The notes: generated from the letters alone by a model not told the origin. DNA of 46,125 nucleotides from Escherichia coli (GCF_965641715.1 NZ_OZ282456.1); one strand, 5' to 3'. Counted from the stretch's first letter, positions 2,305 through 17,384 are shown. Translations and numbers: made by a program.

Positions 2305-2311
2305 ATTGAGC

Positions 2312-3003: not shown

Positions 3004-3113
3004 TTATATAATTATAGATTTATATAAAAAGTGCTTTACAGGTGGGAAAAAATTTCCTATGGTTATACCCGAAACCGAGCGATACCCGCCCTGGTTAAAC
3101 CGGAGATAACCCG
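3004..3113 (+). promoter_or_regulatory. Copy A of a triplicated ~110-bp promoter-leader element (AT-rich box, -35 TTTACA at 3035-3040, 17-bp spacer, -10 TATGGT at 3058-3063, leader with GGAG)
   Basis: Near-identical to 12067-12175 and 16786-16895; each copy ends at an ATG. Confidence 0.55.
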
Positions 3114-3494
3114 ATGAGCATGATTAAAATCCGCAAAAACGCTTTCCTTAAAATTCAAACTATCCTGGCTGGTTCTGTTGGCGTGATTTGCCGTTCTTCC
3201 TCAAGCCGCATCGATGACTGCTACGATGATGAGTATCGTGTGTCCTCATGCGATGAGGCTTTAACCTGGCTGAAGGAGAATCAGGAACGTGCCCAGGTAT
3301 ATCTGGAAACAGAGAACGGCAATCAGATGCTGCGTATTAGCGGTCGTTATGGATTTGAAACTACATTCATGGCCTATTTTAATCAGGCTTACTTTGACAA
3401 GGAGTTGGCCTGGTACACTGATCGCATGAGCAAAAGCGAGCCAGCCCCGATTACACCGCCGAACAATAAACCATTTTTATTCCTCGTTAAGTAA
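3114..3494 (+). CDS. Hypothetical protein (driven by promoter-leader copy A)
   Basis: 126-aa ORF directly after the conserved leader and Shine-Dalgarno. Confidence 0.45.
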   Translation: MSMIKIRKNAFLKIQTILAGSVGVICRSSSSRIDDCYDDEYRVSSCDEALTWLKENQERAQVYLETENGNQMLRISGRYGFETTFMAYFNQAYFDKELAWYTDRMSKSEPAPITPPNNKPFLFLVK

Positions 3495-3502
3495 ACACAA
3501 TG

Positions 3503-3529
3503 CGCAAAGTGTCATTTTGACACTTTGCG
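3503..3529. promoter_or_regulatory. 27-bp perfect palindrome CGCAAAGTGTCA-TTT-TGACACTTTGCG; candidate operator
   Basis: 12-bp perfect inverted arms around a 3-bp centre, 29 bp upstream of an HTH regulator ATG; half-site copy AAAGTGTCATTTTGA at 12006-12020. Confidence 0.45.
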
Positions 3530-3557
3530 AGTGTTAATATTGTGCGAGGAGGGTGCT

Positions 3558-3830
3558 ATGACGGGTTATGAATTGAAATTATGGCGTCGTGGGATGAACT
3601 GGACGCAGGAGCGAGCCGCCGAAGAATTTGGGATATCGTTGGCTACATATAAGCGATATGAGAAGGGGGAGCCGCCGAGGGTCATTGAGATGGCCATTCG
3701 CGTTCTGTCGTTTGACGATATGGTGAAGGATCTTTCACACCTTGATAAAGATGCGATTCTGTTAAGGCTGCAAACCCTTGTATGGGAAAAGGTTAAAGTG
3801 TCGGCAGAATTGGAACAAGGGATCAAATGA
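3558..3830 (+). CDS. HTH (XRE-like) transcriptional regulator
   Basis: ATG at 3558 with GAGGAGGG upstream; HTH segment WTQERAAEEFGISLATYKRYEKGE; the track TTG start at 3525 lies inside the palindrome. Confidence 0.5.
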   Translation: MTGYELKLWRRGMNWTQERAAEEFGISLATYKRYEKGEPPRVIEMAIRVLSFDDMVKDLSHLDKDAILLRLQTLVWEKVKVSAELEQGIK

Positions 3831-3882
3831 TCCTTTACGGATCGTTTTATGGTGGTGTAATGTAAGCGCCAGAAAGACAAAA

Positions 3883-3905
3883 ACCGCCTTGCCGGGCGGT
3901 TTTCA
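3883..3905 (+). terminator. Rho-independent terminator (possibly bidirectional)
   Basis: ACCGCC-TTGCCG-GGCGGT hairpin followed by TTTT, preceded by an A-run. Confidence 0.45.
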
Positions 3906-4600
3906 GTCTGAAATTTAAATCTTGCTTGGTAGGCTGGATTTAAAAAGACACCTCTTGATTGGGGCGGCTTTCTTGCGTCTAAAGATAATCAAATCTTTTT
4001 GCGCCTGCAACCCCTTTTTTACTGGTGCCCATTTCAGACTCACGCTCGCGTCGTTGTCTTTGCCACTTCGTTGGGTTCGGTGTTTTTGGGCGAAGTGGCG
4101 CGCGGGTATGCGTACAAGGGGAAAGTGTGCTGACGCAAGCCAGGAACAGCGATCTAAACTAAGTCGAGTCTGAGAAAGGCAGGAGTGCGACAACTCGCCT
4201 GTGCTCTATGAGCAGAAGAAGGTATATCAGACGACCAATGGCATGATTGTGGGCCACAGGGCGCACACGGCGGCGAAGCATTGGAAACGATGTGGAGCTA
4301 TCTGGTGGCATGAGTTCCGGTACTCTATCTCGAGCTTTTTTTGATGCTTTTGAGAAGGGGCCGGAACTCCGGTAAAGGGCACCCTGTATGGGGGGAGGGG
4401 GGGTTGTGTCTGAAGGGTGGTTATCGGTTATGGTGGAATTATGATGCGTAGAAAAGCGAGTTTGCTGCAAGCTATTGGGTCCATTATTTCTTTGTTTCCG
4501 GCAGTTGATCATTTTCGTCATATGGCGACACGTTCCAGTATGGGCTTGGCGCGTGACGCTGACGCTATTCGAAAGGATTTTCAGAAAGTCTCTGGTGTTG

Positions 4601-4635
4601 ATAAGAGAGAAAAGAGTAAGGGGCCGTAGCCCCTT
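4601..4635 (-). terminator. Rho-independent terminator of the antirepressor operon
   Basis: AAGGGGC-CGTA-GCCCCTT hairpin immediately after the antirepressor stop, followed on the minus strand by a T-rich run. Confidence 0.55.
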
Positions 4636-4639
4636 GTAG

Positions 4640-5782
4640 TTATGGTCTGCTTTTCTGTGCCAGCTTATCAGCACATGTTTTTATCAGATCCTGTAGTGTC
4701 CTGGCTGGCAGGTTTGCATCCAGTACGCTGAGTATGCTGTTGTGATCTGCTTGGTCTACTACTTTGCCTGTCGGTGGTAGTAGCTTGAGCTGAGGATTCA
4801 GGTTTTCGTCAAAGCTGATAAGTGCTCTGGCGTTTCTGAGCAGATCAAGAAGTAAGGCTGATATCACATTTTCCTGAGTCATTGCTGGCAGATTTAGCGC
4901 CGCTTTGGTTTTCCCTGTTGCCTTGTCAAACTCCTTGATTAGTTCCTTCCTATAGTTCGGTTCCGTTAATAGCCGATTATGCTCTGTTGCCGCGCGGATA
5001 ATCGTTTTTTCCTGGTACAGTCGTTTAGCCAGATCGCGCTCGTACTGTGTTTTTAACACGCTGCTGATAGCGTTAAAGGCTTCAATGTAGGCTAGCTTGA
5101 TATCCTTCACGCCTGGACCGTCGATACTTTCCATGAGCAAGGTAAATCCGTCTTTTGTCATGCGATAGATTGTTATTTCGCGGTCGCTTCCTTCCAACGG
5201 TCGTTGCTCTTTAAAGAAATGACGCGCCGCAGCTGTGCGAGGAATGCGTAACGCATCGATGGCCATAACGATGGAATTGTTTGTGGTGCTGAATGCCTGG
5301 GCTACATCGGCTGAGGTTGTGAGTGGCTCGTTGTTGCACACCTTAACGTAATACATTGGTTTGGCGTTGAGCGTATCGACAACCTCACGAGCATTGTTTG
5401 GCGAGACGGTAACGGTCGCGGCCGTTTGCGCGTTCTGGTTGAAATAGCAGTCTTCCAGTTTTTCGAACACATCCCAAGCCTGATCGGTTTCGAGCATTTT
5501 GGCGTGACGGGCTGCTCCGTGTTCGGTCCAGAGAATTAGGGAGCGGGCATTTTTACCAACTAACCCGATTGTTTCAGGTCTGTTCTTGAACTCGCGTAAT
5601 TCGTTTTTTTCAATTTTAAAGTAATGCTTTCCGGCTATGAATCGCGTCGTGTTGTTCAGAAAGTTATCAGAAATGTTTTTGATTTTTGTTCCGTATAACT
5701 GCGCCAGAAGTTCAGTTGTAATAACGGGGATCTGGTTATGCAAGATAGGCTGTAGGGTGTTAACGGTCGGAAGCGTTTTCAT
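4640..5782 (-). CDS. Phage antirepressor (Ant-like)
   Basis: 380-aa ORF; N-terminal region with ILWTEHGAARHAKMLETDQAWDVFEKLEDCYF resembles antirepressor N-terminal domains and the C-terminal part resembles KilA-C-type domains, by recall. Confidence 0.55.
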   Translation of the reverse strand: MKTLPTVNTLQPILHNQIPVITTELLAQLYGTKIKNISDNFLNNTTRFIAGKHYFKIEKNELREFKNRPETIGLVGKNARSLILWTEHGAARHAKMLETDQAWDVFEKLEDCYFNQNAQTAATVTVSPNNAREVVDTLNAKPMYYVKVCNNEPLTTSADVAQAFSTTNNSIVMAIDALRIPRTAAARHFFKEQRPLEGSDREITIYRMTKDGFTLLMESIDGPGVKDIKLAYIEAFNAISSVLKTQYERDLAKRLYQEKTIIRAATEHNRLLTEPNYRKELIKEFDKATGKTKAALNLPAMTQENVISALLLDLLRNARALISFDENLNPQLKLLPPTGKVVDQADHNSILSVLDANLPARTLQDLIKTCADKLAQKSRP

Positions 5783-5970
5783 TTTGCACCTCCCATAACT
5801 ACTTTGGTTACGAGGGAGATTTTTGCGTCAGAAACAGCGTTATCGTTGCTGGCGATGCGCATAGCTTCGCGCTCGATTATTTCAGCCAGGCGGAATTTAT
5901 CGGCGTATGAGGCTTTCTTGAGAAGGATCTTTACGAGGTTGACGTAATAGTCATGGGGTAAGTTTGTCAT
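5779..5970 (-). CDS. Small hypothetical protein co-transcribed with the antirepressor
   Basis: Internal ATG at 5970 has GGAG 8 nt upstream; stop overlaps the antirepressor start; the track start at 6006 has no SD. Confidence 0.4.
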   Translation of the reverse strand: MTNLPHDYYVNLVKILLKKASYADKFRLAEIIEREAMRIASNDNAVSDAKISLVTKVVMGGAK

Positions 5971-6130
5971 TGTGATATCTCCAATATATGGAACTATCAC
6001 CGCCATTCGAGGCTAATCAAATGGTGGTGAGCCGTACAGGGTTAGCCTTACCGGACACAATGACGAACCGGCGCGGATTTCTCCGCCCCTGTACGACCCA
6101 CCATAATTTGGGCGTAACAGTGCTCTACGC

Positions 6131-6157
6131 ATAAAAAAACCGCTAACGCGGTATGCG
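6131..6157 (-). terminator. Candidate intrinsic terminator (minus strand) in the antirepressor leader
   Basis: ACCGC-TAAC-GCGGT hairpin with a 7-A run on the plus strand (T7 on the minus strand). Confidence 0.35.
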
Positions 6158-6298
6158 CCATCGTGTTATTCAGGAGGCTAATCCCGACCGTAGATTTTGC
6201 TACGGCTCGGAAAGTGTCCACCAATGGCGCATTCATGTCAATACGGCGGGATTTTAACAGAGACAACCACATAGCGTGGGTTTATTGGTAGGCAGAAA

Positions 6299-6333
6299 CA
6301 AAAAAACCGCCCTATTGAGGACGGTTCTTTTGT
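6299..6333 (-). terminator. Intrinsic terminator (minus strand, possibly bidirectional) in the antirepressor leader
   Basis: 8-bp stem ACCGCCCT/AGGACGGT with one G-U pair, loop ATTG, flanked by an A-run on one side and TCTTTTGTG on the other. Confidence 0.5.
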
Positions 6334-6715
6334 GCTGATCGGATTCGCGGTCCTTTCAGCATAACGTCGTTGTGTAAACAACCACGCAAGCACAAGCGGC
6401 GTATCTATTCTTACTCAACTGAGGTGAATAGTCCACTATTCATATAAAGAAATTTAGTTCCTTAGTTCATGCAGAATGAAGTTTTTTAACTTCTTCGGAT
6501 GTAATTACATGTAATAAAAGCAATTGTTATTCCTTCATTATGAAGGCGAGGACGTGTAATATGGCTTGGGGCCTTTTCGCCGATTCGCACCCGGGCACCG
6601 ACTTTAAGGAAAGGATCATCCACTTGCCGTACACGCAAGCACAAGCGGAGTGCTTGCTCTCGCGTCATTTTCGTCGGTGGAGATGCCGTGAAACGGCCTG
6701 TAAGGGCCACACAAT

Positions 6716-6836
6716 GAAAAAATACTGTATGTGTATTTTTATCGTTGTTACTGGAGCTTTGTTTACGCCACATGGGGAGGGTTGGAAGATTACTGATAAC
6801 GCTCTGAATGTGACGATAAACATTAGCAGCAAGTAG
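6716..6836 (+). CDS. Candidate small hydrophobic peptide (40 aa)
   Basis: MKKYCMCIFIVVTGALFTPHGEGWKITDNALNVTINISSK; AAGGG upstream of the ATG; terminator immediately downstream. Confidence 0.2.
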
Positions 6837-6841
6837 CGATT

Positions 6842-6864
6842 AGGCCCCTTCGGGGGCCTTTTTT
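6842..6864 (+). terminator. Rho-independent terminator
   Basis: AGGCCCC-TTCG-GGGGCCT hairpin followed by TTTTTT. Confidence 0.55.
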
Positions 6865-6921
6865 ACTGCAACCTGCATTTGATAGCTGTTTACCATTGCA
6901 GTAGCTTATATACCGTAAGAG

Positions 6922-6934
6922 CCACAAGATGTGG
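6922..6934. promoter_or_regulatory. Operator-like inverted repeat CCAC-AAGAT-GTGG
   Basis: Same ACCAC-N5-GTGGT architecture as the three sites between the repressor and cro-like genes. Confidence 0.35.
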
Positions 6935-7012
6935 TTACGATTTCAATACGGGGTTGATATGAAAAAGCGGTATGACGAATTTGATGGTTTCTAAGAGACG
7001 TTGACCTCTAAT

Positions 7013-7037
7013 GAGGCGGGTTGGTTGCCCGCCTTTT
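7013..7037 (+). terminator. Rho-independent terminator
   Basis: GGCGGG-TTGGTTG-CCCGCC hairpin followed by TTTTTT. Confidence 0.5.
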
Positions 7038-7049
7038 TTATGGCTACAT

Positions 7050-7199
7050 TTAAACGCTGGAACGCATTAAACCTTTCAGAACTGCTTCACGTACCCATTC
7101 TGGCCTGGTTGATAGCAAGGCAAATAAACGCCCAGCTTTGAGTCGCTTGAGGTCTATTAGACGAGTTTTTAGTAACCGTGTATATTGTTGTTCGGACAT
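7050..7199 (-). CDS. Small hypothetical protein (49 aa) downstream of parG
   Basis: ATG at 7199 with GGGG 8-9 nt upstream; track frame 7050-7232. Confidence 0.25.
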   Translation of the reverse strand: MSEQQYTRLLKTRLIDLKRLKAGRLFALLSTRPEWVREAVLKGLMRSSV

Positions 7200-7261
7200 A
7201 ACAAATTCCCCTTGTTGTGTCGCGACGGCCAACAGTTGGCGCTGGAGGTCGTCACCTTCTC

Positions 7262-7510
7262 TTACTTCTGGTTGTATTGAGCCTTGAGTAACTCAAAAGA
7301 TTTTGTCAGCACTTCTTTCAATGACATATCCATTGAACTGGCGAACGTTTTGTACTCGCGTTTAAATTCAGGGTCGACGTTAAACGCCATTTGTGCCCCA
7401 CCTGATTTGGTTCTGGTTGGCGTTTCAGTCGGGTCGAAAACCTGCGGTTGTTCGATCGATGGCGGTACGCCTTTGCTGTTCTTCTTTGGTGGTTTTGATG
7501 GTGCGGCCAT
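7262..7510 (-). CDS. Partition protein, ParG-like ribbon-helix-helix centromere-binding protein
   Basis: 82 aa; disordered N-tail then FNVDPEFKREYKTFASSMDMSLKEVLTKSFELL, matching the RHH pattern of type Ib ParG; lies immediately downstream of parA. Confidence 0.5.
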   Translation of the reverse strand: MAAPSKPPKKNSKGVPPSIEQPQVFDPTETPTRTKSGGAQMAFNVDPEFKREYKTFASSMDMSLKEVLTKSFELLKAQYNQK

Positions 7511-7553
7511 GTGTATCCCCTCTTATATAAATCTATAAAACTATAATTATATA

Positions 7554-8207
7554 TTACGCGGCAGTAGTCAGAGCCTCAAGCTGGTTGATAATCCCCTGAA
7601 TAACGTCGTCTGCCTTTTTGCGTGGCGCAACGTATGAGCATTCAATGAGGCTTAAGCCCTTATCCTGAGCTTTGCTCAGAGCTGGCTTGTGGGGAATGTA
7701 CTTATCGACAACAAAGTATGGCGTATTAGCCAGGTACTCTTGGGCTTCAATATAGTCAGCTTCATTTTCAGCCGCGCCGGAAAACACCATGCAAATTTTC
7801 TTGATTGGCACACCCTTTTTAACGATGCCGTGAGCAGTGTTAACGGTGGTTTCCAGGTCATCGGTAGAGAATCGGGTTGGCAAAATAACCATATCCAGAA
7901 ATTCAGATAGCTTCGGTACTGATTCAGATGCGTAGGCACCGCCATCAACGATAACCAGGTCGTATACTTCTGATTCGATGATTTTCTGGACTTGTGATGG
8001 TGTGCCGCACGGCTGCGCCGCGATTGCTGGTTCGATATTGTTGGCCATTCTGCGTTGTACCCAACGCGTTACCGTTCCGTTAAGCACATCCATATCGATC
8101 AGGCATACATTCCAGCCAGCCTTTGCATAAGCAACTGCTAAAGCACGGGCAATTGTTGATTTGGTTACGCCGCCTTTTCCGTTGAAAATACCTACAGAGA
8201 TAGTCAT
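7554..8207 (-). CDS. parA: Partition ATPase ParA/ParF (Walker-type)
   Basis: Deviant Walker A GKGGVTKST near the N-terminus; ATG at 8207 has GGAG 9 nt upstream (track start 8222 lacks SD). Confidence 0.8.
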   Translation of the reverse strand: MTISVGIFNGKGGVTKSTIARALAVAYAKAGWNVCLIDMDVLNGTVTRWVQRRMANNIEPAIAAQPCGTPSQVQKIIESEVYDLVIVDGGAYASESVPKLSEFLDMVILPTRFSTDDLETTVNTAHGIVKKGVPIKKICMVFSGAAENEADYIEAQEYLANTPYFVVDKYIPHKPALSKAQDKGLSLIECSYVAPRKKADDVIQGIINQLEALTTAA

Positions 8208-8222
8208 TTGTCGAGACTCCAT

Positions 8223-8345
8223 GTGTTTGGTTATATAATTCTATAAATCTATATTTATAGAACGAGGTAAGCATAACCAACTTTTTGGCGGATGGAAAGC
8301 GTTTTATATAATTATATAAATCTATAATCATATAAGCGGGCGTTA
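8223..8345. repeat. AT-rich repeat array upstream of parA; candidate partition site/operator
   Basis: Two copies of TTATATAATT(C/A)TATAAATCTATA at 8231-8260 and 8304-8335. Confidence 0.4.
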
Positions 8346-8357
8346 GCCCGCTTGCAG

Positions 8358-8732
8358 TCAGAGGTCAGCTATCGTTGATATCAGTTGATTTGCTAGCTGT
8401 CGCTGTTTACGTGAGAGGGTTAGAGCAGCTTCTGAGCGGTCGCTAAGAGGAGTGTTTTCATCAAGAATCATGAGGCATACAGAAATAATAGCCCTGTTAT
8501 ATGCCATCAATGGCTGGCACAGCTTCGATACCGCTGGCACATCGTATTGCAAGGCCGTTTTGAGGCAGACTTTTTGTTCTGATGCCAGATGAAGGATAGA
8601 TTCTATCCAGTCGATATCTTTCTCATTATCAATGATTTGGCATAACATACACTCAATCGCTATGTTCAACGCTTGGATTTCGATTCCAGCAGTGATCAGA
8701 GTTTCGTTTTTATTGGCTGTATGTAATTCCAT
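8358..8732 (-). CDS. Hypothetical protein downstream of the repressor
   Basis: 124-aa ORF; no recognisable family. Confidence 0.4.
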   Translation of the reverse strand: MELHTANKNETLITAGIEIQALNIAIECMLCQIIDNEKDIDWIESILHLASEQKVCLKTALQYDVPAVSKLCQPLMAYNRAIISVCLMILDENTPLSDRSEAALTLSRKQRQLANQLISTIADL

Positions 8733-8764
8733 GCGTAGCCTCTTTTATACTTTCACATGTTGTC

Positions 8765-8785
8765 AAAACCACAAATCGTGGTTTT
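8765..8785. promoter_or_regulatory. Operator-like palindrome AAAACCAC-AAATC-GTGGTTTT
   Basis: ACCAC-N5-GTGGT site in the intergenic gap downstream of the repressor gene. Confidence 0.4.
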
Positions 8786-8824
8786 TTTGAGCGTAGAAAT
8801 GCACGGCTTTCGCCGTGCTGTGTA

Positions 8825-9481
8825 TCATAACCAGTTGACAACACTAACTACGCGGCCCAGAACTTTATAACGCTTAAATTCCTCGTTATTCAGATGCTTA
8901 GTGTTCATTTCAGCATCCCTTTCGGTTGACAGCATAACAGCATTGTCACCCGGTATGACTCTACAGTGCCTCAAAACAACCAGGCCATTTCTGTCTTCAA
9001 GGGCATAGATCCCCTCATGAATCTCTGTATCGTCTGTATTAATCAGGACTTGGGAGCCAGGGGATATTGTTGGTGACATTAACTCATCGTTGCTCTGGAG
9101 AACTGACAGAGACGATGGGTTGATGTTCTTGCTTCGTAGAATCTCCTGTTCTATCGCCAGCACTGGCTTTTCTCCGGCGTGCGATGCTATGTCATTTTTT
9201 ATAGCTACAAGCCCAGGAATAACAGGAGCGTTAGTATTCTGGGGTGGGAACGGGTTATCTGTTAAGCACGCGATATAAGGCGCTGATGCTTTCAGGGCGT
9301 GCGCGATTTTCTTGATGGCAGGTATCGATGGTTGTCTTAATCCGGCCTCATAGTTCTGCAAGGTGCTTAAGCCTATTCCAGTGACTTGCTGGAGATCTCC
9401 GGCAGTCATGCCGGATTGTTTCCGTAGAGTCTGAATGCGCAGACCTATTTCTTTCTTGATGTTCTCGTCGTTGCTTTTCAT
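8825..9481 (-). CDS. CI-like prophage repressor (HTH XRE domain plus S24 LexA-like peptidase domain)
   Basis: N-terminal HTH (LRKQSGMTAGDLQQVTGIGLSTLQNYEAG); C-terminal domain with the layout of self-cleaving CI/LexA repressors. Confidence 0.8.
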   Translation of the reverse strand: MKSNDENIKKEIGLRIQTLRKQSGMTAGDLQQVTGIGLSTLQNYEAGLRQPSIPAIKKIAHALKASAPYIACLTDNPFPPQNTNAPVIPGLVAIKNDIASHAGEKPVLAIEQEILRSKNINPSSLSVLQSNDELMSPTISPGSQVLINTDDTEIHEGIYALEDRNGLVVLRHCRVIPGDNAVMLSTERDAEMNTKHLNNEEFKRYKVLGRVVSVVNWL

Positions 9482-9518
9482 GTCTCATCAATCGTGAATG
9501 GTGGGTTATTTATACATT

Positions 9519-9636
9519 ACCACATTTAGTGGTTTTCACATGGTAAGACGAGAGGTGGACCACAAATAGAAGGTTATTTTTTGTTTCGCCCATTGAAAAA
9601 CCCACGATATGTGGTTTTAATACCACATATCGTGGT
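9519..9636. promoter_or_regulatory. Divergent immunity control region with three operators: ACCACATTTAGTGGT (9519-9533), CCACGATATGTGG (9602-9614), ACCACATATCGTGGT (9622-9636)
   Basis: Three copies of the 5-bp inverted repeat ACCAC/GTGGT with 5-bp spacer, plus a half-site at 9558-9566, between divergent repressor and cro-like genes. Confidence 0.55.
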
Positions 9637-9655
9637 TTTAACTGGAGTTCGTTAA

Positions 9656-10150
9656 ATGACCTTTCAGGAGTGGGTTGACGAAAATGGAGGCCAAATTGGT
9701 GTTGCCAGAAAGTTTGGCTTTACGTCATCACTGATTGGTGCCTGGTATCGCTTCGAGAGATTCCCTCGTGCGGATAACCTGACGCTGCTGGTGGCGTATT
9801 CGGAAGGCCGGATTAACGTCCAGCAATGGGCGGCAGATTTTGCCGAACGTCAGCGCCAGCGTAGCGATGGCACATCGGTTCGGCAGAACAAGATCAAAGG
9901 GAATCTCCCTGTTAACTGCTTATCAAGGCTGAAAGCGGTTTTCTCTGAGCTGGGGATGCCTGCGGAGCGTTGCAATCTACGCGGTCCGCGATTCATTGCT
10001 CGCTGGAAACACTCACACGTAACCGTTTCAGAGGTTCGTGATGCGATTACCGTGCTGGAGCTTAAGAATAAAGATTCCAGCGATATCGAGCTGATTCATA
10101 AGGAGATTAGCAACGCCCGGCGTTCAGCACTTGGGAGGCTTGAGGAATGA
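9656..10150 (+). CDS. Cro/CII-like early regulator (N-terminal Cro/YdaS-type HTH)
   Basis: Divergent from the repressor; N-terminus NGGQIGVARKFGFTSSLIGAWY resembles Cro/YdaS HTH. Confidence 0.4.
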   Translation: MTFQEWVDENGGQIGVARKFGFTSSLIGAWYRFERFPRADNLTLLVAYSEGRINVQQWAADFAERQRQRSDGTSVRQNKIKGNLPVNCLSRLKAVFSELGMPAERCNLRGPRFIARWKHSHVTVSEVRDAITVLELKNKDSSDIELIHKEISNARRSALGRLEE

Positions 10151-10662
10151 TGATTCTGGCCTTCTTTGGTGATAATCACCAGATTCAATCGCAGGTGGTG
10201 CACTACCTTGATCAAACGATTAAAGGATTTGTTATCGATCATATTGATAACGATAGCAAACATCTATCTGTAGATCAGAAAATTGGACGTGTGCAGCGAC
10301 TGGTTGCCAGCCGTAACAGACGTGACACCGTAACAGTAGTCACGGGGATAACGGAGGTCATGGAGTACCAGATGTTGCTGCATCGTGGAGCTGTTTTCTG
10401 CGTTCTTCCTGGCATTCTGCCAGCAATTCTTGCTCGTGGTTTTGTCCCTATTGATGAGTCGTTTTTATATGTAACCCCAAGCCGTTCCCTTCTGGATACG
10501 GAGGCGAAGCGTCGCATTTATATGATGCCGGACGAGGCATTTTCTGAATGTTACCGCCGTGAAATGAGGTTGGGTAAACGAGAAGTGTCTGTTGTTCGTG
10601 ATGGCAGGTTTTTAAGAAGCCGCACGGTGAAAAGCACCAGAAATGACGGGGGCCATCAATGA
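10147..10662 (+). CDS. Hypothetical early protein
   Basis: 171-aa ORF with start overlapping the upstream stop (ATGA). Confidence 0.4.
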   Translation: MMILAFFGDNHQIQSQVVHYLDQTIKGFVIDHIDNDSKHLSVDQKIGRVQRLVASRNRRDTVTVVTGITEVMEYQMLLHRGAVFCVLPGILPAILARGFVPIDESFLYVTPSRSLLDTEAKRRIYMMPDEAFSECYRREMRLGKREVSVVRDGRFLRSRTVKSTRNDGGHQ

Positions 10663-10892
10663 GTAGTTATGTTCGCGGTGCTGCGATGCATTGCCAGAAT
10701 TCCCAATTCTGGCGCTTTCTGACCAGTAAAACAGGGAAGAACGTTTCAAACAGTTCTGAGGCCTCTGTGATTCTGCGTGAGTTTTGCGGGATCTCATCCC
10801 GTAAAGAGCTGGCAAAGAACTACGCGGCCAGAAGCATGTATGTCCAGTTAATCAACGAGTTCAACCTCTTTATCAATGGTAAGGGGCGCTGA
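10659..10892 (+). CDS. Hypothetical protein
   Basis: 77-aa ORF, overlapping start and stop with neighbours. Confidence 0.3.
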   Translation: MSSYVRGAAMHCQNSQFWRFLTSKTGKNVSNSSEASVILREFCGISSRKELAKNYAARSMYVQLINEFNLFINGKGR

Positions 10893-11296
10893 TGAACGGA
10901 CGTACACCAACGAAGAAAGAGAAACTTTATATACAAGCGGTGCTCACTCACGTGGGTTGCATAGCTTGCATTATTGATGGCCGTGAAATTGAGAATCCAG
11001 AGCTGTGGACGGAGCTACATCACGATCCTGATTACGGCAGCGTTGATGAGAATTGCCACTTTCATAGCTTTGGATTGTGCGCACCACATCATCGCGGTGT
11101 TGTGCCTGGTGGTGGGCGCGTGCCTCCGCATATCGCCGTTCGTCACCCTCCCCTGAGTAATTGTGCTCGCTTTGTTGAGCGTTATGGCACCGATGAATTT
11201 TTGTGTGCGCAGACGTGGGAGCTGTTGCCGCAGTCAGTTAAAGACGAAATTGGGTTTGATCTTAGTCTTGGTGAAGTACCAGGGGATACCAAATGA
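10892..11296 (+). CDS. Cys/His-rich protein, possible HNH/Ref-like nuclease
   Basis: Motifs CIACI...HHD...CHFH...CAPHHRG suggest a metal-binding nuclease fold; family uncertain. Confidence 0.3.
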   Translation: MNGRTPTKKEKLYIQAVLTHVGCIACIIDGREIENPELWTELHHDPDYGSVDENCHFHSFGLCAPHHRGVVPGGGRVPPHIAVRHPPLSNCARFVERYGTDEFLCAQTWELLPQSVKDEIGFDLSLGEVPGDTK

Positions 11297-11625
11297 GATA
11301 TACCGGCTTTCGCAAACCAGCGACCAGGAAAAGCAAATACGGCAATAAAAAAACGGTTGTCGATGATATCGCTTTTGATAGCAAAAAAGAGGCTGATTAC
11401 TACTGCGAACTGAAGTTACTGAGAAAAGCTGGCCGCGTTGTGACGTTTCTTATGCAGGTGCCTTTTCATCTGCCTGGTGGTGTCGTTTATAAACTTGATT
11501 TCATGGTGTTTTATGACGATGGGACGATTGATTGTGTCGACACTAAAGGTGTGCGAACAGACGTCTACATCATGAAGAAAAAGCAGGTAGAGGCGCTTTA
11601 TCCCGTCACGATACGGGAGATCTGA
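11293..11625 (+). CDS. DUF1064-family phage protein
   Basis: KYGNKKTVVDDIAFDSKKEADYYCELKLL matches the DUF1064 N-terminal signature as recalled. Confidence 0.5.
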   Translation: MRYTGFRKPATRKSKYGNKKTVVDDIAFDSKKEADYYCELKLLRKAGRVVTFLMQVPFHLPGGVVYKLDFMVFYDDGTIDCVDTKGVRTDVYIMKKKQVEALYPVTIREI

Positions 11626-11628
11626 ACA

Positions 11629-12006
11629 GTGAGACGCGATCTGGATAGCTTGTTTGAGCTATGGGCGCTGTGGGTGCGCAATGGCTGCAACGCCCGTAGC
11701 GGTTTCGCGTCGATGTTAGAAATGATGATGGTTACGCGTTGCCAGTTTACCGGAGGGGGCGGCGCACCAAATGACTCACTGGAAACCAGTATCGAGGGAG
11801 CTGTGACGGCCCTCACGGTAGTTGATGAGACTGCGGCGCTGGTTGTCCGAATTGAATACGGGGCGTGGGAGATTCGGGGCCTCGACATAAATGCACCGCA
11901 TATTGATAAAGCCCACGCCCTTTCTCTTAGTCTCAGACAGTATCGCCGGAAGCTGGCAAAAGCCAGGGCGTATGTTGTCGACTATTTGAAAAAGCGAAGA
12001 GAGTGA
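11629..12006 (+). CDS. Putative antitermination protein Q-like
   Basis: 125 aa; N-terminal L.ELWALW pattern and size resemble small Q antiterminators; position just upstream of a promoter-leader copy and the late genes. Confidence 0.4.
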   Translation: MRRDLDSLFELWALWVRNGCNARSGFASMLEMMMVTRCQFTGGGGAPNDSLETSIEGAVTALTVVDETAALVVRIEYGAWEIRGLDINAPHIDKAHALSLSLRQYRRKLAKARAYVVDYLKKRRE

Positions 12007-12066
12007 AAGTGTCATTTTGAGCTGTTTTGATGGTGTGTAGACATCGGGAACATCGAAAATCTATAA

Positions 12067-12175
12067 ATATATAATTATAGATTTATATAAAAAGTGCTTT
12101 ACAGGTGGGAAAAAATTTCCTAAGGTTATACCCGAAACCGAGCGATACCCGCCCTGGTTAAACCGGAGAAATCTG
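12067..12175 (+). promoter_or_regulatory. Copy B of the triplicated promoter-leader element
   Basis: About 97 percent identical to 3004-3113 and 16786-16895 over about 100 bp; one base shorter before the ATG. Confidence 0.55.
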
Positions 12176-13243
12176 ATGAATAAACAAGTAATTATTTCTG
12201 ACTGGATCAACAACCCTAACAGCCTGTTAAGCACTGATACTGGCTACCTATTACGCCATGTTAATGGTCGTATGGTCAAAAGCGATGAGCACGAAACCTT
12301 TTTCTTTGTTGAAGACGATGGGCGTATCTATGAGGATGGTTACTCTTATGAAGCCCAAACTGGTTGTATCCCTGCGGAGCTGGTGGACGTAACAGAAGAT
12401 CTGCGCAAAGCATGGCTTGAACAGCAGCAGCGCGGAGATGATTACGTAAACACCTATCAGGAACGCCAGAACGCGCGTCTTGCCCGATATATTGCTCGTG
12501 CAGAAAAAGCCAGAAAAGAAGGTGCGGTAGCGCATAAGCGAGCGCATGACCTGTTGGATGTGATCCCGTTAGGCCAGCCGATTTTAGTTGACCATTATAG
12601 CGCGAAAGGCCATCGCCGCCGTTTGTCTAAAGCTGATGCGTTATTCAGAAAAGCGTTTGTTGAATGCGAAAGTAAAGCATCACACTACGAGAGCAAAGCC
12701 GCAGGTGTTGGTCGTAATGGAATTTCGTCTGATGATCCTGATGCGCTATTTAAGTTGCTTCGTAAGCTGCAAGGCTGCATGAAGTCACACGTCAAAATGA
12801 AGGCCGCAAATAAGGCCATTCGCAAATACAAAAAAGACCAATTACAGCAGCTTTCTGCATTAATCGATCTCAGGTTTACAGAAAGCGAAGCCAAAGAGTT
12901 ACTGGCCGGAGATTTCTGTGGGCACATCGGATTCCCTTCATACGCACTGAGCAACAATAAGGCCGAAATCAAACGACTACAGAGCCGTATTAAGGAGCTT
13001 GAATCGGTCAAGTCTGTAACAGGAGCACAGCGCGAAGAATACGACGGCTTTTCTATGGAGATAGATCCAGAGGATAACCGCATCCTGTTTTATTTCCCTG
13101 GCAAACCAGAGGCAAACATTCGTTCGCTGCTTAAATCACGCGCCTTTAAGTGGAGTCCAACCCGTAATGCATGGGTTCGCAAGATTACTCCAAACGCCCT
13201 GGCTGATGCCCGATATCTGAAAGAATCGCTATTGAAAGCCTGA
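12176..13243 (+). CDS. DUF3560-family protein
   Basis: Segments GQPILVDHYSAKGHRRRLSKADA, ISSDDPDALFKL and MKAANKAIRKYKK match DUF3560 as recalled. Confidence 0.5.
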   Translation: MNKQVIISDWINNPNSLLSTDTGYLLRHVNGRMVKSDEHETFFFVEDDGRIYEDGYSYEAQTGCIPAELVDVTEDLRKAWLEQQQRGDDYVNTYQERQNARLARYIARAEKARKEGAVAHKRAHDLLDVIPLGQPILVDHYSAKGHRRRLSKADALFRKAFVECESKASHYESKAAGVGRNGISSDDPDALFKLLRKLQGCMKSHVKMKAANKAIRKYKKDQLQQLSALIDLRFTESEAKELLAGDFCGHIGFPSYALSNNKAEIKRLQSRIKELESVKSVTGAQREEYDGFSMEIDPEDNRILFYFPGKPEANIRSLLKSRAFKWSPTRNAWVRKITPNALADARYLKESLLKA

Positions 13244-13320
13244 CAGTAAGCCTACGGCGGGATATCTCCCGCCGTATATAGAATTATATATTTATATAAA
13301 TGTATAAGGACGCCTCGACA

Positions 13321-13602
13321 ATGAAACGCAAAATTATTAACCCCCAAGATGTGATTAATTTCCTGACCGATCACCCATGTTCAAAAGTGGACGTAATCGC
13401 GGAGCACATTGGTGTGTCGCAGAACTCTATGCGTTGCAGACTGAGAAGCATGGTTGCCGAAGGACAGATAACAACCAGGAAAATAAATGGTTGCCTGTAC
13501 TACTCCGCTAAACCGGAATTGCCATTTGGCATGAATCCTAACTCCATGTTGTTTAACACCTTATTAGCCAAAGTTAAGCCGTTGAGAGGGGCTGTGGCAT
13601 GA
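13321..13602 (+). CDS. Hypothetical protein (possible winged-helix DNA-binding)
   Basis: Track frame 13300-13602; the 13300 start lies inside an AT-rich motif, ATG at 13321 preferred. Confidence 0.35.
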   Translation: MKRKIINPQDVINFLTDHPCSKVDVIAEHIGVSQNSMRCRLRSMVAEGQITTRKINGCLYYSAKPELPFGMNPNSMLFNTLLAKVKPLRGAVA

Positions 13603-13992
13603 GCATCAAAACCCATACCGGAATAATCATTACCAATGATGGTGAGAAAAGAGTGAAGTTGCGCGAAACGCCGACAACCTGGTGTGTTGGTCCGAAAGAA
13701 ACATAATGAAGCACATACAACCGAAAACATGGCAGAAACTGGACTCTATGGGCGTTAAGTTGGAGAAGATTACTCAACTTAAGCAGTGGCATATCGGCGA
13801 ATATTATGGAAGTCCTGGTCGGGATGTTCGGTTGGTCAAAAGTTAAGTATTGTTTTTTTATTGATCGATTAACCACAATATGAAGGTTTTTTTATGGGAA
13901 AACCTTGTTTTAGGTGGTAACTGGGTGTAGTGTTTCATTTAACGTAGTAAAACTGCGTTAAGCGATTACCGCGTAATTTGTTGCTTTATGAA

Positions 13993-14023
13993 GCCCTGCC
14001 TTTTCGGCGGGGCTTTTTTTTTT
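13993..14023 (+). terminator. Strong Rho-independent terminator immediately upstream of the lysis cassette
   Basis: 8-bp stem GCCCTGCC/GGCGGGGC (one G-U), loop TTTTC, followed by a 10-T run; holin ATG 14 bp downstream. Confidence 0.65.
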
Positions 14024-14036
14024 AACGAGGATTTCA

Positions 14037-14432
14037 ATGTCAGCAGAACCAATTTCCGGTACGGCCGTTGCTGCTGGTGGCCTGATGGGTGCCAGCGTTT
14101 TTGGTATTGCAACTGGTATTGATTACGGCGTTGTATTCGGGGCATTTGCTGGCGCTGTTTTCTATGTTGCTACAGCGGTGAATATTAGCCGTCTCAAGCT
14201 GATTGGCTATTTCTTTACATCGTTCATTGTTGGAGTGATTGGAGCGCCGTTAGTTGGCTCATTTCTTGCCAAATGGACCAGCTACAACGATCGTCCTCTG
14301 GATGCGCTTGGTGCGGTTATTGTGGCTGCATTGACCATTAAAATCCTCACGTTCGTAAACAGCCAGGATCTCGGTAGCATCTTTGGAATGCTTTCCCGCT
14401 TACGTGGAGGGGGTTCAAATGGTAAGCAGTGA
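14037..14432 (+). CDS. Holin-like membrane protein
   Basis: 131 aa with several hydrophobic segments; first gene of the lysis cassette. Confidence 0.45.
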   Translation: MSAEPISGTAVAAGGLMGASVFGIATGIDYGVVFGAFAGAVFYVATAVNISRLKLIGYFFTSFIVGVIGAPLVGSFLAKWTSYNDRPLDALGAVIVAALTIKILTFVNSQDLGSIFGMLSRLRGGGSNGKQ

Positions 14433-14715
14433 CCCGTCAGCACTGATTAATGCGGTGCTTTGCACAGTAATAGTAATGGCGCTGATGCTTTATCGACGGA
14501 AAGACTCCAGGCATCGTCCATTTGTTTCCTTTCTGGCTTATATCTACGTCATTGTATACGCCAATGTTCCCTTCCGTTATGTGTTCGGTCTTTATCAAGA
14601 ATCCCACTGGCTGGTGGTTATTGGAAATCTGATTATCTGCATCGTTGTTCTGTATTTCAGGGGCAATCTGGCGCGGATAGTTGACGCATTAGGGTTTAAT
14701 CATGACCAAAGATGA
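14419..14715 (+). CDS. Second membrane protein of the lysis cassette (holin/antiholin-like)
   Basis: ATG at 14419 with GGAGG 8 nt upstream; about three predicted transmembrane segments; track frame 14383-14715. Confidence 0.4.
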   Translation: MVSSDPSALINAVLCTVIVMALMLYRRKDSRHRPFVSFLAYIYVIVYANVPFRYVFGLYQESHWLVVIGNLIICIVVLYFRGNLARIVDALGFNHDQR

Positions 14716-15244
14716 GATTTTTAACAGTGTTCTTGGAAAAGAGGGCGGCTATGTGGATCACCCTGACGACAAGGGAGGCCCAACAAAGTGGGGCATTACT
14801 CAGAACACTGCCCGTGCTCATGGATACCGTGGCGATATGCGCGATTTAACTCGCGAACAGGCTCTGGAAATCCTTGAGGCTGATTACTGGTACGGCCCAC
14901 GTTTTGACCAGATAGCAACTCTGTCGCCGGATATTGCCGCAGAACTGTGCGACACGGGCGTCAACATGGGGCCAACAGTGGCGTCAAAAATGCTTCAACG
15001 CTGGCTGAATGTGTTCAACCTGCGTGGGAAGCTGTATCCCGATTTGGATGCAGACGGACGAATCGGTCCACGTACCATTAATGCGCTGCGTGCTTATCTT
15101 GGGAATCGGGGAAAAGACGGCGAACGGGTGATGCTGACGTCGCTGAACTGTACGCAGGGCGAACGCTATCTGGAGTTGGCGGAGAAGCGCGAGGCTAATG
15201 AGTCGTTTGTCTACGGCTGGATGAAAGAGCGAGTGGTGGTATGA
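14702..15244 (+). CDS. Endolysin (GH108-type N-terminal domain with peptidoglycan-binding C-terminal domain)
   Basis: N-terminal signature GKEGGYVDHPDDKGGPTKWGIT typical of GH108 lysozymes. Confidence 0.75.
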   Translation: MTKDEIFNSVLGKEGGYVDHPDDKGGPTKWGITQNTARAHGYRGDMRDLTREQALEILEADYWYGPRFDQIATLSPDIAAELCDTGVNMGPTVASKMLQRWLNVFNLRGKLYPDLDADGRIGPRTINALRAYLGNRGKDGERVMLTSLNCTQGERYLELAEKREANESFVYGWMKERVVV

Positions 15245-15519
15245 CTGGTTTGAAGGCCGTTTTGTCATTTATTGGCACAATTATATTGGTTGCATTTGGC
15301 GCGTTTGGTTTTGGTCGTATGAAGGGGCGAGAAAAGGCCGAAGATGAAGCTGAAAAGCAGCGCATTAATGAGAATGCAGCCGCCGTAAAAGCCACTGCGG
15401 AGCGGCGTATAGAAGTGACAAAAGAGGTGGGGAATGTACAGCAGAGTGTTAACCATATGGCTGATGACGATGTTGATCGCGAGCTGCGGGAGTCGTGGAA
15501 GCGTCCCGGTGGTGGTTGA
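15241..15519 (+). CDS. i-spanin (Rz-like)
   Basis: N-terminal transmembrane helix then charged coiled-coil region; follows the endolysin with overlapping start. Confidence 0.5.
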   Translation: MTGLKAVLSFIGTIILVAFGAFGFGRMKGREKAEDEAEKQRINENAAAVKATAERRIEVTKEVGNVQQSVNHMADDDVDRELRESWKRPGGG

Positions 15520-15643
15520 TACCGCCTGTGATTGGGTAAAGCCCATCTACCTGACTGATCACGACATCGATGTTATGGACCGACAGACAAAGAAAGATAT
15601 TCTGGCTCATAACAGGGCATGGGAAATCAACTGTCCAAAGTAA
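15434..15643 (+). CDS. o-spanin (Rz1-like lipoprotein) overlapping the i-spanin in another frame
   Basis: Lipobox-like LIASC within the signal sequence; overlapped Rz/Rz1-type arrangement. Confidence 0.5.
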   Translation: MYSRVLTIWLMTMLIASCGSRGSVPVVVDTACDWVKPIYLTDHDIDVMDRQTKKDILAHNRAWEINCPK

Positions 15644-15720
15644 TATATATTTCTATAATTATATAAATATATAGTTACAACATTCTATGCGCTTTTCTCA
15701 TGGGCGCACGCATCAACCAT

Positions 15721-15803
15721 GTTTGTCTGATATGCCGCCGCGCCCAAAAATCCTGAATTTATTGGCTGGGATTTTCGTGCGCGGCGCCACACCAGACAAA
15801 CAA
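15721..15803. other. Long multi-tier inverted repeat upstream of the tRNA
   Basis: Outer arms GTTTGTCTG/CAGACAAAC, middle arms GCCGCGC/GCGCGGC, inner arms AAAATCC/GGATTTT. Confidence 0.35.
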
Positions 15804-15812
15804 ATCAAATAT

Positions 15813-15888
15813 GGCCCCTTAGCTCAGTGGTTAGAGCAGGCGACTCATAATCGCACGGTCATCGGTTCAAATCCGGTAGGGGCCACCA
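15813..15888 (+). tRNA. tRNA with CAT anticodon (Met by anticodon; sequence resembles the lysidine-type tRNA-Ile2)
   Basis: Manual cloverleaf: 7-bp acceptor stem GGCCCCT/AGGGGCC, D-arm GCTC-AGTGGTTA-GAGC, anticodon loop CTCATAA, T-loop GGTTCAAATCC, 3' CCA encoded. Confidence 0.8.
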
Positions 15889-16195
15889 ATTCACTCTCAC
15901 ACATAAAGATAAGCGCGGTGGAGTTACTTCTTCGTGCTCATCTTTATGCGTGCCTGGTGCGCATTTCGGGCGAACGTGGGGCTAAGTTACAGGCAGGGCC
16001 TGTTATCCGCAAAGGGGTAAAAGCTGGAGCGGCACGGAACTGTAGCCGTGTTACCAAAACAGCGTTGTCGGGCGATATCCGGCACACAACAGGCAAGGGC
16101 ATTAATCAGTCTGGTTAGTGCCCTTTTCGTTGTGTTTGCTGTAGAGCTGGCCAGCGTTATGACTGCCGGAGATAAGCGCCGGAGGCACAATTAAC

Positions 16196-16783
16196 ATGGA
16201 GGCAATTGCATTGTTTAATCTGATTTATGCAGATCCCCCCTGGGAATACAAAGACAAGTGTAAGGATGGGAATCGTGGAGCTGGTTTTAAGTATCCAACG
16301 ATGAAAGCTGAGGAGATTGCTCGTATTCCTGTCTGGCAGCTTGCTAATCCTGAATCGTGTTTGTTGGCCATGTGGTGGGTTCCGACTCAGCCAGAAGAAG
16401 CGTTGCTGGTGGTTAAAGCATGGGGATTCAGGCTGATGACCATGAAGGGCTTCACATGGAACAAATGTGGTAGCCGACAACCAGATAAGCTGGTGATGGG
16501 GATGGGGCATATGACTCGTGCAAACAGTGAAGATTGCTTGTTTGCGGTAAAAGGCAAACTGCCGACCCGTCTTGATGCGGGGATCATTCAGTCGTTTACA
16601 TCGCCTCGTCTGGAGCATTCTCGGAAGCCTGATGTGGTCCGTGACAAGCTGGTAAAGCTGTTAGGTGATGTTCCTCGTATTGAGCTGTTTGCTCGCGGTG
16701 ATTTACCTGATGGCTGGCATGGCTGGGGCAACCAGTGCAATGGAGGTATCCAGTTGCATGATGCTCTCTGGCAAGTGGCATAG
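16196..16783 (+). CDS. MT-A70-family DNA N6-adenine methyltransferase
   Basis: Catalytic DPPW motif near the N-terminus (IYADPPWEY), size about 195 aa. Confidence 0.75.
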   Translation: MEAIALFNLIYADPPWEYKDKCKDGNRGAGFKYPTMKAEEIARIPVWQLANPESCLLAMWWVPTQPEEALLVVKAWGFRLMTMKGFTWNKCGSRQPDKLVMGMGHMTRANSEDCLFAVKGKLPTRLDAGIIQSFTSPRLEHSRKPDVVRDKLVKLLGDVPRIELFARGDLPDGWHGWGNQCNGGIQLHDALWQVA

Positions 16784-16785
16784 AA

Positions 16786-16895
16786 TTATATAATTATAGA
16801 TTTATATAAAAAGTGCTTTACAGGTGGGAAAAAATTTCCTAAGGTTATACCCGAAACCGAGCGATACCCGCCCTGGTTAAACCGGAGATAACCCG
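16786..16895 (+). promoter_or_regulatory. Copy C of the triplicated promoter-leader element
   Basis: Near-identical to copies A and B; ends at the ATG of 16896. Confidence 0.55.
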
Positions 16896-17165
16896 ATGAA
16901 AGTACAAGACCGTGAAGTAGTAAAAAACCTCCTGCAATACCTGACCTCAAAAAACCTGACGGGCAGCGTTGAGTTCCGTGAAGCGTTAAAACATTTCAAC
17001 GTCACTACGGTTTATCGTTGGGAAAACGAACATTCTGAAAGACCGTATGTGGTGGATGTTTTTGCGCCTGATATTGAGTGCGGTTTTGAGCGTCATTCGT
17101 TCAAGGAGAAACATTCCGCTGATGTTTTTTGTGAGGTTGTATGTGCGGCAGGAGATGATGAGTGA
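16896..17165 (+). CDS. Hypothetical protein (driven by promoter-leader copy C)
   Basis: 89-aa ORF directly after the conserved leader. Confidence 0.4.
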   Translation: MKVQDREVVKNLLQYLTSKNLTGSVEFREALKHFNVTTVYRWENEHSERPYVVDVFAPDIECGFERHSFKEKHSADVFCEVVCAAGDDE

Positions 17166-17362
17166 TGCGTATTTCCTTCAAACGTGCGACTGAGCAGCAA
17201 CGCAAAGAGTTCCTGGCTGATGATGTAGCGGCCGTTTATGACCTCATGAAAGAGGTTGTGGAATCAGGGAACTACACGGCGGCAAAGATGCTTAAACTGC
17301 AATTCTTGCTGGGCGACCTGAAATACAAATCCGAAGTTGTCGCCGGACGACGCGAGCATTAA
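17162..17362 (+). CDS. Hypothetical protein
   Basis: 66-aa ORF with overlapping start (ATGA) to the upstream gene. Confidence 0.35.
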   Translation: MMRISFKRATEQQRKEFLADDVAAVYDLMKEVVESGNYTAAKMLKLQFLLGDLKYKSEVVAGRREH

Positions 17363-17384
17363 ACCGTAACGATAACGAACAACG

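Follow-up and report, generated by a model that had tools for sequence, protein, structure and literature searches.

The 46,125-base-pair (bp) stretch of DNA analysed here (the window) is the complete circular Escherichia coli plasmid pRHB38-C13_5 (CP055628.1), to which it is identical as the reverse complement (window position = 25329 - record position), and this element is a phage-plasmid with plasmid modules and a full myovirus head and tail gene set. It carries eight intergenic arrays of a directly repeated 8-bp unit, TATAKAWW, which are non-random, keep their positions in related elements, and co-occur and co-vary with a family of small proteins encoded next to the partition gene parA. 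From these comparisons we infer that the arrays are dispersed centromere and operator sites for the window's 82-amino-acid member of this family, a predicted ParG-like ribbon-helix-helix protein, an explanation to which we assign a probability of roughly 0.7.

An array was defined as at least three consecutive 8-bp units, each fitting T-A-T-A-n-A at four or more of the five positions, and both strands of the whole window were scanned. Exactly eight loci were found and none elsewhere, each with three or four head-to-tail units (31 in total), giving the unit consensus T30 A28 T31 A31 (T20/G11) A29 (A21/T10) (T20/A8), or TATAKAWW. A preliminary description of this DNA had listed an AT-rich motif at eight intergenic sites and proposed scanning for it against shuffled controls; all eight sites lie where it placed them or within a few bases, and the motif is clearly in excess. 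The exact 22-mer TATATAATTATAGATTTATATA occurs three times (at 3005, 12068 and 16787) where shuffles expect 0, and allowing one to three mismatches adds eight further overlapping matches, all inside the other five sites, again with 0 expected, while TATAGATTTA occurs 6 times against 0.16 expected. In a third-order Markov simulation, trained on the window's own 7.1 kilobases (kb) of intergenic DNA with the arrays included, the mean was 0.21 loci and the maximum 3, with 0 of 1000 runs reaching eight. By the record annotation 8/8 arrays are intergenic, as had been described, and they lie between 3005 and 16810, in the plasmid and regulatory third, with zero arrays found by the three-unit detector in the 29-kb structural module. 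The tape-measure gene contains a look-alike of an array end (TAGATTTATATAAAA, 34962-34999), which comprises one and a half units, fails the three-unit definition and is probably due to chance.

The architecture of the motif is not that of a core with a reverse-complement arm, as first thought: the matches are offset by exactly 8 bp, and the arrays are thus runs of direct 8-bp units. Both orientations do occur as described, but they merely reflect the strand of the adjacent gene, since seven of the eight arrays are oriented toward the downstream gene, with the array at 15642-15675 reading equally well both ways. Two sites that had been placed from 12053 and from 16786 exist, but are better bounded at 12060-12091 and 16779-16810.

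Three of the arrays belong to the par operon, which lies on the minus strand. The parA gene (7554-8207) encodes a 217-amino-acid Walker-type ATPase of phrog_164 (E = 9e-39 against the ParA-like family), which also matches the NCBIfam ParA_partition model NF041546 (E = 4e-22) with 78.6 bits, under the curated cut-off of 180. It has a deviant Walker A motif, GKGGVTKS, at residues 10-17 and lacks an N-terminal DNA-binding domain. A small ParA of this kind is one mark of type Ib partition, the others being a ribbon-helix-helix centromere-binding protein and short repeats iterated ahead of the par promoter or across it. Here these repeats are arrays D (8303-8334, four units) and C (8230-8261, four units), which bracket a putative parA promoter read from the consensus (8270-8298; TTTCCA at 8298-8293, a 17-bp spacer and TATGCT at 8275-8270). 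Array D, which is one base off the 22-mer found in arrays A, E and H, ends 4 bp upstream of the putative -35, and array C begins 8 bp past the putative -10 and reaches the parA ribosome-binding site, which is an operator position. Array B (7522-7553, four units) precedes the gene for the ParG-like protein (7262-7510, 82 amino acids, just after parA), and fills the spacer from the parA stop codon to the ribosome-binding site of that gene. The arrays do not flank the partition genes as the preliminary description had it, as one copy is in the parA-parG spacer, two are upstream of parA, and none is downstream of parG.

The ParG-like protein has a basic, proline-rich N-terminal part followed by QMAFNV-DPEFKREYKTFASS-MDMSLKEVLTKSFELLKAQ. 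Residues 1-39 are predicted to be disordered, and an AlphaFold 2 model based on an alignment of 78 homologues predicts helices at residues 47-59 and 64-80 (predicted local distance difference test score 92-97 over residues 41-80), preceded by an extended segment and a low-confidence N-terminal tail. A beta-strand formed by QMAFNV (residues ~40-45) would complete the ribbon-helix-helix, going by the alignment with ParG. The family was recovered with an exhaustive profile search, which gave 102 protein clusters (50% identity clustering), mostly of 70-90 amino acids; a word-indexed homologue search returned solely relatives of at least 79% identity. When the 78 homologues were scanned against Pfam, RHH_10 was matched by 6 at E <= 0.001 and 32 at E <= 0.1, Antitox_RHH by 2 and 16, and ParG (PF09274) by 1 (E = 3e-4) and 4, respectively. 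A profile search of the PDB returned three hits in all, each a ribbon-helix-helix protein (SvtR 2kel, ParG 1p94 and the antitoxin 7e4j), albeit weak with E = 0.16-0.68, and hhalign aligned the whole ribbon-helix-helix with that of TP228 ParG with a probability of 65% (E = 6e-5). The window protein itself has no match in Pfam, with the ParG profile PF09274 giving none even at E = 10, nor in NCBIfam or by sequence in the PDB; fold searches with it were empty, BLASTP found no match to TP228 ParG (residues 29-66 of the sequence used agree with the 1p94 alignment), and PHROGs lists its family as being of unknown function. In architecture the protein is predicted to be a ParG-like ribbon-helix-helix, but membership of the Pfam ParG family cannot be demonstrated, and we have not filed it there because of the missing PF09274 match, the single matching homologue out of 78 and the hhalign probability of 65%.

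Outside the par operon, three arrays head the copies of a triplicated promoter. The repeated unit is 114 bp long and consists of the array, AAGTGC, TTTACA, 17 bp, TAWGGT, a conserved leader of ~50 nucleotides, GGAG and ATG, all on the plus strand. Copy 1 (3004-3117; TTTACA at 3035-3040, 17 bp, TATGGT at 3058-3063) contains array A (3005-3028; three units, TATATAAT TATAGATT TATATAAA), which follows the terminator of a RelE/XRE toxin-antitoxin module and lies 6 bp upstream of the -35, and is followed by genes for a 126-amino-acid protein and an RstR-like helix-turn-helix (HTH) protein (HTH at 3558-3830). Copy 2 (12067-12180; -35 at 12098-12103, -10 TAAGGT at 12121-12126) is headed by array E (12060-12091, four units), upstream of a DUF3560 gene (12176-13243), and copy 3 (16786-16899; -35 at 16817-16822, -10 TAAGGT at 16840-16845) is headed by array H (16779-16810, four units), which comes after a methyltransferase gene and before the gene at 16896-17362 and the structural (late-region) genes. 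The three copies would drive, in turn, the genes of the 126-amino-acid and RstR-like proteins, the DUF3560 gene and the first genes of the late region. The triplicated promoter shares the design of the parA promoter minus the downstream array, and the -35 region at array D is like that at arrays A, E and H (GCTTTCCA vs GCTTTACA). An array therefore adjoins the -35 at each of four σ70-like promoters, that of parA and the three copies, all of them consensus predictions, in keeping with an omega-type regulator, for which at least three operons are expected. The other two arrays follow a terminator or operon end: array F (13277-13308, plus strand, four units) has a terminator-like hairpin on one side and on the other the ribosome-binding site of a MarR-like gene (13321-13602, 93 amino acids) ahead of the lysis cassette, and array G (15642-15675, four units, orientation ambiguous) abuts the stop codon of the last open reading frame (ORF) in the lysis cassette and is some 140 bp away from tRNA-Met, which lies downstream.

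The ~50-nucleotide leader of the triplicated unit (3064-3117, 12127-12180 and 16846-16899) is itself kept in the three copies and, with a few changes, in the Salmonella relative. As a structured RNA it gives a weak hairpin (z -1.1 to -2.1) and no Rfam match, and a role in antitermination or translational control is conceivable. Terminator-like hairpins are found at 13990-14016 and 17384-17407, inside the regions downstream of the triplicated unit.

The arrays are better conserved than their surroundings. Salmonella plasmid pAR-0407-1 (L002), which has ~72-76% DNA identity to the window, has eight out of eight arrays at the same positions, and these are identical to the window at 220/248 positions (89%), compared with 652/960 (68%) in the 60-bp flanks; array G differs in a single base (31/32). 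Eight out of eight arrays are also present in Yersinia phage vB_YpM_39 and in a viral-contig relative of the Salmonella type. The motif scan of viral contigs found solely members of the same phage family and one chance hit, and none of the species-representative enterobacterial genomes that were scanned contains the exact motif; the scan of species-representative genomes gave five isolated single hits in unrelated taxa, with no ParG-like gene nearby, which we judged to be chance. Among the 61 PLSDB records matching the par region, which were the only ones, no close relative had a swapped par module.

The link between the arrays and the ParG-like protein comes from conjugative plasmids without phage genes. 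The 27.7-kb plasmid p737A1-27K-cfr (L025, CP100008.1) has a parA 45% identical to that of the window and downstream of it a 77-amino-acid ParG-like homologue (39%, E = 4e-14), and its own array variant, TCTATAAAAATATAATTATATTTTTATAG, occupies the parA leader and the parA-parG spacer as well as two spacers within the type IV secretion system operon, one of which is virB9-virB10. All it has in common with the regulatory third of the window is ParA, the ParG-like protein and the toxin-antitoxin module. Similarly, the Cronobacter plasmid pESA2 (L033) encodes a ParA (45-46%, the range including that of p737A1-27K-cfr) and a ParG-like protein (35%, E = 1e-11 in pairwise BLASTP), and has five TATA-type arrays where 0.07 would be expected. 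One lies just upstream of the parA promoter region, three occupy the parA-parG, mobC-nuclease and virB9-virB10 spacers, and one is near or upstream of a methylase gene. By eye, another periodic stretch can be made out in the pESA2 parA leader. A tblastn search with 38 proteins of the window's regulatory third found ParA and an invertase alone in pESA2. An array at the position of B is present in pAR-0407-1, p737A1-27K-cfr and pESA2, and an array at the position equivalent to C in every par locus examined. This comparative evidence supports the suggestion of the preliminary description that ParG binds the par-linked copies, and points to the ParG-like protein itself as the most likely shared regulator or architectural protein proposed there for the other sites, which unites the two ideas; the HTH protein encoded at 3558-3830, which had been put forward as a binder, is disfavoured as it has no homologue in the two conjugative plasmids.

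Plasmid p737A1-27K-cfr also contains, at 7441-7488, a 48-bp perfect copy of a window array with its -35, cut by an IS26 end, and near it (7984-8863) a RelE/XRE module 96% identical to window 2068-2948. These copies are evidence that small conjugative resistance plasmids and this phage-plasmid family have recently exchanged DNA.

In more distant homologous par loci the 8-bp units occupy the same positions but differ in sequence: CTTTAAAT in loci L029 and L028, TTTCGCTAA / TTAGCGAAA in L027, TAACGAWW in L032, TACATAWW in L030 and GCATGNNT in L031. Their upstream arrays adjoin or overlap a -35 similar to GCTTTACA. The 8-bp period is found in 10/10 homologous loci, as autocorrelation of the ten parA-upstream regions gave 78 and 80 matches at lags 8 and 16, with other lags at 22 or fewer and shuffles having a mean of 8.6 and a maximum of 26. 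Dispersal is found here too, since the phage-plasmid with locus L029 has seven CTTTAAAT-type arrays against 0.1 expected, one of which abuts a TTGCGC-17-TATTAT promoter-like site. The unit sequence varies together with the predicted beta-strand of the ParG-like protein: P-[LI]-N-F-N-V is paired with a CTTTA unit core and L-N-F-K-V with CG-containing units, and the strand is Q-M-A-F-N-V in the window and Q-L-N-L-Y-V or similar in the conjugative plasmids with TATA-type units.

We propose that one ParG-like dimer would bind each 8-bp unit, with the three to four units of an array coated cooperatively. Given their location around the parA promoter and ahead of parG, arrays D, C and B would form an autoregulatory operator; they would also be the centromere on which the ParA ATPase acts, as type Ib systems have it. 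At the remaining five sites the same protein would add centromere sites and most likely damp the adjacent promoters, which would make the partition protein a plasmid-wide regulator tying phage replication, lysis and late-region genes to the state of the plasmid. Repression is favoured because the arrays overlap the -35 in relatives.

Several observations weigh against this proposal. The window arrays end 6 bp upstream of the triplicated -35 (4 bp at parA) and not over it, so that repression is not guaranteed and the sign of regulation is uncertain, and activation or a purely structural centromere role fits the arrays at the triplicated promoter equally well. The promoters are consensus predictions, and DSSP called no beta-strand in the AlphaFold 2 monomer model. 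The distant phage-plasmid relatives have diverged in all genes together, and their co-variation with the arrays thus fails to single out ParG; the case depends chiefly on the two conjugative plasmids, which are themselves related. Finally, the spread of short arrays of three to four units over 14 kb is unlike the 20 contiguous boxes of TP228.

A more far-reaching version, which we regard as possible but doubtful, is that the arrays form a switch that senses copy number and links partition to the lytic programme. In the low-copy plasmid state the ParG-like protein would coat the arrays at the triplicated promoter, at the gene just before the lysis cassette and where the late region begins, and so keep these phage functions low; runaway replication after induction would titrate the protein and release them. 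The same family would then do an equivalent job on the transfer operons of the small conjugative plasmids.

Among the explanations that do not involve the ParG-like protein, the one that survives best, although we consider it improbable, is that the arrays are intrinsic promoter architecture with no element-specific binder, either UP elements, which are A/T-tracts at -40 to -60 that bind the alpha subunit of RNA polymerase and need no specific repeat register, or sites for the host nucleoid proteins H-NS, IHF or Fis. Relative to a σ70-like promoter, arrays A, D, E and H span roughly -42 to -74, and each is followed by an A-run; the array sequence is extremely AT-rich with many TpA steps. This accounts for 4/8 arrays, however: none of B, C, F and G precedes a -35, their places being a leader, an intra-operon spacer, the gap from a terminator to a ribosome-binding site, and an operon end. 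The strict 8-bp register and near-invariant T-A-T-A-n-A go beyond the needs of an UP element, and the homologous par loci contain CG-containing units (TTTCGCTAA, TAACGAAA, GCATG), which resemble neither UP nor H-NS sites and change with the beta-strand. A host factor is also difficult to reconcile with the species-representative enterobacterial genomes scanned lacking the exact motif.

Slightly less probable still is that the arrays are operators of another regulator of the element, for which the 124-amino-acid protein (8358-8732, uncharacterised), the RstR-like HTH protein, the XRE antitoxin or a late activator from the early operon would be candidates. Several uncharacterised small and HTH proteins adjoin arrays, the orientation of seven arrays with the downstream gene is what promoter-linked operators would show, and the XRE antitoxin is 95% shared with p737A1-27K-cfr. 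That plasmid and pESA2 both carry dispersed TATA-type arrays, but the former has homologues of the toxin-antitoxin pair alone and the latter of none of the candidates, and it is this lack of a candidate common to pESA2 which makes another element regulator unlikely. The antitoxin is unlikely because the promoter region of its own module (2068-2311), where it must bind, has no array. The CI-like repressor was likewise rejected as the binder, since its divergent promoter region lacks an array and has its own distinct palindromes, CCACGATATGTGG.

We give very little credence to the arrays being weak promoters or transcriptional punctuation, i.e. tandem TATAAT-like -10 elements or RNA polymerase traps linked to par by descent alone: the units do resemble -10 hexamers (TATAAT, TAGATT, TATAAA), and B, F and the virB and mob arrays of the plasmids are directly before ribosome-binding sites, a useful spot for an internal promoter, but a promoter scan finds no properly spaced -35 partner, the units of relatives at the same positions are unlike -10 hexamers, and the 8-bp period and co-variation with the beta-strand are left unexplained. 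Moreover, such promoters are compatible with ParG binding over them, and so are no true alternative. Iterons for the replication protein are excluded by position, as there is no array within 2 kb of repA and none in the 643-bp intergenic stretch after it; the IncFII-type RepA class is controlled by antisense RNA, not by iterons.

With regard to the other modules of the element, repA (13-849) is IncFII-type by annotation from a relative (PF02387), and is followed by the RelE/XRE toxin-antitoxin pair in the 2068-2948 region (XRE antitoxin 2659-2958). Between the 126-amino-acid gene and the RstR-like HTH gene there is a palindrome with a 12-bp stem (CGCAAAGTGTCA...TGACACTTTGCG, 3503-3529), which could be an operator for the RstR-like protein or a terminator. 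On the minus strand, a 63-amino-acid ORF and an ORF6N/Ant-like antirepressor (4640-5970) have directly upstream of them Rfam matches to the C4 antisense RNA (70.8 bits) and an isrK-like RNA (65.7 bits) at 6020-6206, an arrangement which resembles the P1/P7-style immI module even though this is a non-P1 phage-plasmid. The gap from the antirepressor module to parG is unannotated, and contains a full-length match to ryfA RNA (6567-6864, plus strand; 135.5 bits, gathering score 80). The CI-like repressor faces the early operon in divergent orientation, and the region between them has a perfect 14-bp inverted repeat (CCACGATATGTGG...CCACATATCGTGG, 9602-9635), to which CCACGCTATGTGG at 6267-6279, upstream of the isrK and C4 RNAs, is related; both are probably CI operators, distinct from the AT-rich arrays. 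The lysis cassette is followed by tRNA-Met and an MT-A70 methylase. An unannotated 69-amino-acid ORF (15434-15643, plus strand), the stop codon of which abuts array G, shares, in a different frame, the last part of the Rz-like gene (15241-15519) and may encode an outer-membrane spanin. In the structural module there are a 93-nucleotide repeat in three tandem copies (41322-41714, 63-78% identical, apparently in the tail-fibre region) and a 42-nucleotide repeat in three copies at 120-bp spacing in the tape-measure gene (35683-35964), both of which are coding-sequence repeats unrelated to the arrays.

The family to which the element belongs comprises ~60 plasmids of Escherichia, Salmonella and Klebsiella, and the infectious Yersinia phages vB_YpM_39, 41 and 44 have been deposited with near-identical genomes. 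The pSLy3 phage-plasmid group is related to SSU5 and so is not the same element.

A phage-plasmid has to be inherited stably at low copy number while its lytic programme stays silent, and if our proposal is true, a single partition protein acting on the centromere and on phage promoters would be a direct molecular link between the two lifestyles. It would also provide a function for a family called hypothetical in all records seen, with ~100 clusters in phage-plasmids and small conjugative plasmids, one of which carries cfr. The matched variants of beta-strand and 8-bp unit would form a natural specificity series for studying or engineering DNA recognition by ribbon-helix-helix proteins and plasmid incompatibility.

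The system resembles the type Ib system TP228 ParF-ParG-parH/OF (ParG is PDB 1P94) in having a gene for a small Walker ATPase followed by one for a protein of ~80 amino acids, the N-terminal tail of which is flexible and the C-terminal part a ribbon-helix-helix (both predicted here), and short boxes every 8 bp (a 4-bp box and a 4-bp AT-rich spacer) upstream of and over the par promoter (PMC3130281). In TP228 one ParG dimer binds each 4-bp box, with the boxes 4 bp apart, and the region upstream of parFG is both operator and centromere (PMC3130281). It differs from TP228 in the marginal sequence similarity of the ParG-like protein (hhalign 65%), in the box (ACTC there, TATAKA here) and in its layout, with 20 contiguous boxes there compared with 12 in three short operon arrays here, and with 19 more boxes here in five arrays over 14 kb at other genes, which is not described for TP228. 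In pSM19035, an inc18 plasmid, the ribbon-helix-helix protein omega (with the ParA delta) combines the roles of centromere-binding protein and global regulator by binding repeat arrays embedded in several promoters, with weak activation at low occupancy and repression at high occupancy (PMC4627068). As proposed here, its arrays are parS sites and operators at the same time, and they lie upstream of and over the -35 (PMC4627068). The differences are in the repeats, which are 7-bp heptads (WATCACW), in the Firmicute host and the unrelated sequence, and in the targets: omega acts on plasmid maintenance genes only, whereas here replication-like, lysis-proximal and late-region phage promoters have the arrays, as do the insides of transfer operons in the related conjugative plasmids.

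The N15 SopAB system is also that of a phage-plasmid, with four centromere sites (IR1-IR4) scattered through the genome, but it is type Ia, SopB being a large HTH and cytidine triphosphate-binding ParB that spreads, its sites are single 16-bp palindromes and not 8-bp arrays, and N15 is a linear lambdoid phage unrelated to the myovirus of the window. Going by the title of a 2008 J Bacteriol paper of Ravin, Rech and Lane, cited in PMC11652158, the N15 Sop system reportedly facilitates late gene expression, and to our knowledge N15 is the sole partial precedent for such a link between partition and the lytic programme. KorB of the IncP-1 plasmid RK2 is a partition protein with about a dozen dispersed operator sites that co-regulates replication, maintenance and transfer operons, but unlike the window protein it belongs to the ParB family of HTH proteins, has a 13-bp palindrome as its target and exerts part of its effect from a distance, and is neither a ribbon-helix-helix protein nor a binder of repeat arrays. 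Type Ib partition with a ribbon-helix-helix protein and iterated sites is thus of an already known kind, as are dispersed sites doubling as operators (omega), with N15 SopB as the phage-plasmid precedent. What is new is the protein family, which has no functional annotation in the records and libraries checked, its TATAKAWW unit, and the fact that in a myovirus phage-plasmid such arrays are placed at phage promoters and at the junctions of the lysis and late regions, with the same dispersed layout in small conjugative plasmids.

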